A stretch of 800 nucleotides of DNA from Escherichia coli (lineage in GTDB: Bacteria > Pseudomonadota > Gammaproteobacteria > Enterobacterales > Enterobacteriaceae), in NCBI RefSeq assembly GCF_003334255.1, contig NZ_QOWU01000186.1. One strand, given 5' to 3'. The notes below the pieces were generated by a model. That model saw only the letters and a program-made list of their open reading frames with translations, did not search any database and was not told where the DNA came from. The position numbers and the translations under genes are program-made. Below, in pieces: positions 1-800 of this stretch (position 1 is its first letter; every line of letters starts with the position of its first letter).

Positions 1-800
1 CAGGTCTCGCCCAGCGTGGTGTTCACAAAGGTTTTCAGGCCGTTGGGATCTTTCAGTGCATCCAGCCAGTCATAGACAATCTGTACCCAGGTGGTGAACG
101 GACTGTACGCCGTCCAGATATGGAATGTGATGGAGCGCGGCGGCGGAATTTCATTATCCGCGGCGCTGAAAAACGTCAGACCGTCGCGGGTCCACATCCC
201 CGTGTTTTCACAGATCCACCGCCCGTTGCTCTGGTCCAGTTCAGACTGATGGATCACGCAGCCATGATGTTCACAGAGGTAGAAAACACTTTCGGGACTG
301 TCCTTCTCCCATTTAAGGCCAAAAGGCGTGGACTCATCGCCAAATTTCAGATACTGCTCCTCCCCACAGTGCGGGCAGGGCACATAAAAACGCATGAAAT
401 GTGCCGACTCGTTGGCCGCTTTTTCGATCTGGCAGGAGCCTTTTATTTTTGGCGTCGAGCCGCGAATGGATTTTGGCCATACCGAGCCCTCAATACGCTT
501 ATCCCCCAGCAGGGTTGGCGAGCCCTCTTTTTCGACATCCGGCTCGAATGAGGAAAGTTCGTCATAGCAGACCACATCCACTGATTTTTCACGGTAGTTT
601 TTGGCGGCAGCGCCGCCCAGGCACCAGAAGCCCACACCCGATGAAAAGCGTTTCAGCGTGATGGTATTATCACGATGTTTACGTCCCAGCCAGGGAGAAA
701 GTTTTTTCAGGCAGGGAACATCGCGAATCGTCGCCTCCACGTGAGACTTCATAAAATCTTCAGCGGCAGAATCCGTGGGCTGAAAAAGCAGACTGTTTCG
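1..800 (-). CDS. A: Phage terminase large subunit, lambda gpA family (DNA-packaging ATPase region); internal fragment, 5' and 3' ends both outside the window
   Basis: Seen in sequence: the minus-strand frame with codons at plus coordinates 798-800 down to 3-5 has no stop codon across 266 codons, while the other two minus frames have 16 and 10 stops. From memory: the translation aligns with lambda gpA over blocks such as FMKxHVExTIRD, HRDNTxTxKRF, GFWCLGG, AKNYREKSVDV, YDEL, EGSPTxLGDKRIEGSVWPKSIRGSTPK, HFMRF, CPHCGEEQYLKFGD, TPFGLKW, VFYLCEH, TFHIWTAYSPFTTWVQIV and KTFVNTTLGET. The start codon lies beyond position 800 and the stop beyond position 1. Confidence 0.95.
258..377 (-). other. Cys4 cluster C-x2-C-x30-C-x4-C (CPHC ... 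CEHHGC), candidate zinc-ribbon-like metal site inside the terminase
   Basis: Read directly from the translation: Cys codons at 375-377 and 366-368 (CPHC) and at 273-275 and 258-260 (CEHHGC), with His at 369-371, 267-269 and 264-266. The equivalent lambda segment as I recall it is CPHC ... CEHNAC, so the four cysteines appear conserved. Metal binding is inferred, not shown. Confidence 0.5.
453..461 (-). other. Candidate ATPase coupling motif (C-motif) G-S-T
   Basis: Minus-strand codons 459-461, 456-458 and 453-455 encode G-S-T inside the block EGSVWPKSIRGSTPK, which matches lambda gpA by recollection. Terminase large subunits carry a short Ser/Thr-rich coupling motif downstream of Walker B; the assignment is by position and family knowledge only. 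Confidence 0.4.
558..581 (-). other. Walker B-like motif with adjacent catalytic glutamate of the packaging ATPase (VDVVCYDE)
   Basis: Minus-strand codons 579-581 through 558-560 translate to V-D-V-V-C-Y-D-E, a hydrophobic stretch ending in Asp-Glu. By recollection it corresponds to the lambda gpA Walker B region (VDVAGYDE, catalytic Glu about residue 179). The motif is read directly; the functional assignment is from recalled literature. Confidence 0.6.

Follow-up and report, generated by a model that had tools for sequence, protein, structure and literature searches.

A phage-21-type Walker B strand in the terminase large subunit of an Escherichia coli prophage

The terminase large subunits of phages lambda (gpA) and 21 (gp2) are the described systems with which the gene analysed here is compared. 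In lambda gpA the Walker B motif is VAGYD and E179 is the catalytic carboxylate, according to PMC6379665. The Walker B table in that paper gives MIYID-E for T4, FVILD-E for P74-26 and ICWVE-E for Sf6. GenBank records of phage 21 gene 2 are of long standing (M81255, X02501), and hybrids of lambda and 21 that carry a chimeric 2/A gene are reported to be viable (PMC4669245). Solved structures of terminase large subunits (TerL) include those of T4 gp17, Sf6 gp2, P74-26, HK97 and D6E. These proteins have the same ASCE ATPase and RNase-H-like nuclease fold and the same hhhhD-E pattern as the protein studied here, but their sequence identity to it is 8–16%, and an extra four-Cys insert belongs to the gpA family.

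The 800-nt window, by which we mean the whole stretch of DNA that was analysed, consists of one open frame that lies on the minus strand throughout. It holds an internal fragment (positions 1–800, minus strand) of a lambda-gpA-family terminase large subunit gene of the phage-21 type, comprising codons 99–364 and 2 nt of codon 365 of a 642-codon gene. On the plus strand, a 143-aa ATG-initiated open reading frame at positions 120–551 runs antisense to the terminase frame; it was rejected as a gene candidate, being without support.

Identity and prophage context of the gene

The window is 100% identical to a prophage coding sequence of E. coli 2015C-3121 (NZ_CP027340.1) that is annotated as terminase large subunit. 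In the full 642-aa protein, Pfam assigns residues 48–293 to GpA_ATPase (PF05876, E 7.5e-55) and residues 323–601 to GpA_nuclease (PF20454, E 7.6e-71), in this N-to-C order, and the protein also matches the PHROG family phrog_15, terminase large subunit (E 0). The Walker A P-loop K76-S-A-R79-V-G-Y (KSARVGYTK) lies in the same gene, outside the window, and is intact. Across 97 family sequences K76 is invariant, and R79 and G81 are at least 90% conserved.

In the 2015C-3121 prophage, a lysis cassette is followed by cosN and then by the genes Nu1-A-W-B (portal)-protease-D-E-FI, of which A is the terminase gene. The exact cosN sequence of lambda and 21, GGGCGGCGACCT, is found at locus coordinates 5031–5042, 184 nt upstream of the small-subunit gene Nu1. 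About one chance occurrence of a 12-mer with up to two mismatches is expected in the prophage locus; the cosN match is exact and correctly placed. Nu1 (5226–5735) overlaps A (5707–7635, both in locus coordinates), and W and the portal gene lie downstream. The prophage that hosts the gene is apparently an intact lambdoid prophage. Its spacing between cosN and Nu1 is that of phage 21.

Phage 21 gp2 (M81255 / OL657228, UMO75417.1) shares the octapeptide VDVVCYDE, the gene order and the exact cosN sequence with this locus; it is 91% identical in protein sequence over the full length and 89.3% identical in nucleotide sequence over the window. The roughly 9% of residues that differ lie mainly in the N-terminal ~60 residues, where the gp2 sequence is specific to phage 21. 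The gpA of phage PhiR12_1 (XSB41621.1) is identical at 642 of 642 residues, and the window is 99.4% identical at the nucleotide level to this phage, with only a handful of synonymous differences, as it is to five PhiR12 phages in the phage collection. The PhiR12_1 record names E. coli K-12 MG1655 as the host; a literature search found no paper describing the PhiR12 and mEp332 phage set, the viability of which is suggested by their GenBank host field. The lambda-type gene of mEp332 is ~74% identical to the window in nucleotide sequence. Lambda gpA itself (NP_040581.1) has the same GpA_ATPase and GpA_nuclease domains, the KSARVGY loop, K170-S-V-D-V, Y177-D-E-L and the D178/E179 pair, but its protein identity is 66–67%, and it carries A175/G176 in place of V175/C176 and W104 in place of F104.

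Judged by F104, V175 and C176, and by an ATPase core that is nearer to that of gp2 than to that of lambda gpA, the gene is a member of the phage-21 allelic class of gpA. The identity to the PhiR12_1 protein and the 91% identity to gp2 suggest that its product would carry out ATP-dependent DNA packaging and cos cleavage.

The Walker B strand and the ATPase core

Translation of the reverse complement of positions 558–581 (GTG GAT GTG GTC TGC TAT GAC GAA) gives V172, D173, V174, V175, C176, Y177, D178 and E179. This octapeptide constitutes the Walker B strand with the catalytic glutamate (558–581, minus strand), as indicated by the translation, the strand in the structural model and the conservation across the family; the VVCYD-E portion is noted at 558–575. 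The catalytic codons on the minus strand are those of D178 (561–563) and E179 (558–560). The matching positions of lambda gpA (NC_001416, NP_040581.1) read KSVDVAGYDELAAF. Codon comparison locates the difference from lambda in two adjacent codons (567–572, minus strand), V175 (GTC, 570–572) and C176 (TGC, 567–569). Codons 175–176 are GCG GGT in lambda, GTC TGT in phage 21 and GTC TGC in the window gene; Cys176 is retained through a synonymous codon change between the latter two.

The preliminary description had placed VDVVCYDE at these positions and set it against VDVAGYDE as the lambda sequence, to be checked against a database. The translation confirms the octapeptide and its two differences, and the NC_001416 record shows this lambda sequence to be correct. 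The further claim that the ATPase is probably functional, with its Asp-Glu pair intact, agrees with what we find: both D178 and E179 are intact, and the occurrence of an identical protein in phage PhiR12_1 is consistent with a working enzyme. Two of the eight Walker B residues (25%) differ from lambda, compared to 70 of the 260 residues (27%) over positions 40–299 of the ATPase region. Divergence around the Walker B motif therefore does not exceed that found elsewhere in the domain.

To place the octapeptide in a fold, we used an AlphaFold2 model built from a 97-sequence alignment (mean pLDDT 94.3). Residues 174–178 form a β-strand in this model (DSSP E174–178), with a pLDDT of 98 for the block. 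With the full protein as query, a sequence search (E up to 1) found no solved relative in the PDB; the best Foldseek matches of the model are the solved TerL structures of HK97, Sf6, T4, D6E and P74-26, each with a probability of 1.00. The predicted strand and these fold matches support reading residues 172–179 as the probable Walker B strand of an ASCE ATPase.

Two further features of the ATPase core fall within the window. The conserved motif G212-S213-T214 (453–461, minus strand) follows the model strand E208–213 and is invariant in seven lambdoid sequences; among 97 family members, conservation of G212 and of T214 reaches at least 90%. From general knowledge of terminase ATPases, this would be the coupling (C) motif. 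The other feature, also in the ATPase domain, is an insert with four cysteines that resembles a zinc ribbon, C240-P-H-C243 ... C274-E-H-H-G-C279 (258–377, minus strand), which is β-rich in the model. C240 and C243 are present in all 97 family members and C274 in 96 of them, and the fourth cysteine is found at position 277 (CxxC) in 88 of 97. In the window gene, lambda and phage 21, the fourth cysteine is instead at position 279 (CxxxxC), and position 277 is occupied by His or Asn. No relevant paper came out of a literature search for zinc or metal binding by gpA.

Val-Cys and its covariation across the family

The alignment of homologues that the preliminary description had proposed was run, and it finds VDVVCYDE in phage 21 gp2, PhiR5_1 and PhiR12_1, while VDVAGYDE occurs in lambda, mEp332 and phage D2. 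Val-Cys precedes [Y/F]DE in all 120 of the closest 90%-identity protein clusters, which derive from E. coli, Salmonella, Citrobacter and Klebsiella and some of which contain thousands of sequences. Among 5,426 complete E. coli genomes, the 800-nt segment is present as the lambda type in 3,348 and as the window type in 2,047; that lambda-type alleles might be the less common ones in E. coli was considered and is rejected by these counts. Val-Cys is already known: it is the standard phage-21 allele and ordinary family variation. The preliminary description had considered the pair most likely neutral family variation, a view that the shared octapeptide of phage 21 gp2 and PhiR12_1 supports. It had added that the same residues in close functional homologues would reduce the difference to a non-observation, and such homologues carry them. 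What looks like a mismatch to the textbook lambda sequence beside a catalytic residue is the standard allele of phage 21, and as an anomaly it deserves no more attention.

Several side observations concern these relatives. Segments of gpA-family terminases occur at up to five places per E. coli genome. The gpA of phage D2 (423–2351 in the coordinates of its own locus) is a natural mosaic, 21-like over residues 1–56, lambda-like over ~57–281 and 21-like from ~282 to the end, and its lambda-like block holds W104, A175 and G176 together. In three entries named 'terminase' (647–742 aa, 96–100% identical to the query), BLASTP segments that overlap in query coordinates show that ~15–145 residues of the terminase are duplicated internally; either genuine tandem duplication or an error of assembly may be the cause. 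Among the lambda-type representatives, many are of unusual length (434–1153 aa) but share an identical ATPase region, which suggests fusions or truncations, possibly originating from lambda vector or control DNA in the assemblies.

For a family-wide view, a profile-free exhaustive search of 1.84 billion representatives yielded 4,513 relatives, of which the best 150 were aligned and thinned to 112 at no more than 70% identity. At position 175 these 112 representatives have V (60), A (27), G (10), I (5), S (4), L (3), C (2) and N (1). Position 176 carries I (29), Y (19), L (18), F (14), M (9), K (5), V (4), S (3), C (2), G (2) and others, and with 15 residue types it is the most variable site of the Walker B strand. 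Positions 178 and 179 are D and E, respectively, in 111 of the 112 representatives each. In this alignment Val175 is the family consensus, and the Gly176 of lambda is a small-residue outlier at a position that is normally larger than Cys. The description of Val-Cys as 'bulkier' therefore stands relative to lambda and fails across the family, where Val is usual at 175 and the residue at 176 is usually larger still. VVCYD-E fits the hydrophobic hhhhD-E pattern better than the VAGYD-E of lambda does, and the lambda VAGYD appears as an atypically small version of the Walker B motif.

We had suspected, before computing any correlation, that the exchange of W104 for F104 offsets the change of size at position 175. 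The F104 codon (TTT, 783–785, minus strand) lies in the model strand E101–105. In the family alignment, side-chain volume at position 175 has its most negative correlation with position 104 (Spearman rho -0.64). This pair ranks seventh most negative among 29,893 column pairs and lies ~5 SD from the background (mean 0.00, SD 0.13), in statistics that are only partly corrected for phylogeny. W104 is accompanied by A, G, S or C at 175 in 33 of 39 sequences, and a residue other than W at 104 (F, Y, V, L or I) by V, I or L at 175 in 61 of 71. Among 38 disjoint pairs of nearest neighbours, one with and one without W104, the residue at 175 is smaller in the W104 member in 30 pairs, of equal size in 6 and larger in 2. 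The combination of A175V and W104F looks like a compensated core-packing swap, as far as the alignment can tell, and covariation and strand assignment together point to a probable physical contact between residues 104 and 175. The size covariation of this pair offers a simple testable case of compensated core packing in a packaging ATPase that is without a solved structure.

No convincing size-compensating partner was found for position 176, the best candidates being I94 (rho -0.40) and G91/A91 (-0.27); G176C is therefore taken as a change at a tolerant site that is not compensated. Within residues 40–299, stronger size anticorrelations were observed for the pairs 181–221 (-0.90), 46–203 (-0.85) and 177–197 (-0.84), and further pairs beyond 104/175 are 161–167 and 157–172 (-0.75) and 82–212 (-0.67). 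The more strongly anticorrelated pairs are likely core contacts and could help to validate a structural model.

Interpretation of the V175/C176 pair

VDVVCYDE is very probably the Walker B strand and catalytic glutamate of a phage-21-type TerL, with V175 and C176 as lineage-typical core residues and with a working motor. From general knowledge of ASCE ATPases and from lambda terminase (PMC6379665), D178 would coordinate Mg-ATP and E179 would activate the water molecule that hydrolyses ATP. V174, V175, C176 and Y177 would represent the hydrophobic 'hhhh' stretch, a buried core strand that positions D178 and E179. The size of V175 would be compensated by F104 (in lambda, A175 is smaller and W104 larger), and C176 would occupy a site that seems to tolerate almost any residue. 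The window enzyme is expected to package DNA as the enzymes of lambda and phage 21 do, and its kinetics are probably unchanged by V175 and C176, although 21-type and lambda-type motors may differ subtly.

The two residues could instead be adaptive, shifting the geometry of the strand such that ATP turnover or packaging velocity in 21-type enzymes is unlike that of lambda. They lie close to D178 and E179, and PMC6379665 reports that changes of E179 are lethal in lambda, marking the site as sensitive; moreover, the lambda and window types form two sharply distinct allele classes, both abundant at 3,348 and 2,047 of the 5,426 E. coli genomes. However, position 176 is the site at which the strand varies most, the change at 175 has a compensating counterpart at 104, and the density of differences from lambda is that of the domain average. 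Adaptive tuning of the kinetics is possible but unsupported, and we consider it improbable. A different role would fall to Cys176 if it were a functional thiol specific to 21-type terminases, acting as a redox- or alkylation-sensitive switch or as a metal ligand. The strict retention of the cysteine in 120 of 120 close clusters, despite the synonymous codon change, and its rarity in the wider family (2 of 112 representatives) would fit such a role, but in a clade whose members are at least 78% identical, descent alone would be expected to conserve it. C176 is also predicted to lie in the middle of a core β-strand, and at this position lambda has Gly and most family members have an aliphatic or aromatic residue, so that no conserved chemistry is needed. 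A thiol function is likewise possible but unsupported, and in our estimate very improbable.

The substitutions might also be inactivating, if selection on the terminase had ceased. Cryptic prophages are common in E. coli, and the window comes from a chromosomal prophage; against decay, the 642-codon frame is intact and encodes a protein identical to that of PhiR12_1, with MG1655 as its recorded host, which essentially refutes this explanation. The motif is, in addition, shared with phage 21, and neither the catalytic residues nor the set of flanking genes is disrupted.

Within the reading of V175 and C176 as lineage-typical core residues, the lambda-type (W104/A175/G176) and 21-type (F104/V175/C176) cores may represent two co-adapted packing solutions, the mixing of which (V175 with W104) would be deleterious. 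We put this forward tentatively, as a proposal that we think has a minor chance of being correct. If true, epistasis in the Walker B sheet would limit the recombination joints in lambdoid terminase genes. The co-adaptation of the two cores fits the mosaic gpA of phage D2, because the lambda-type block of residues ~57–281 is carried there as a whole.
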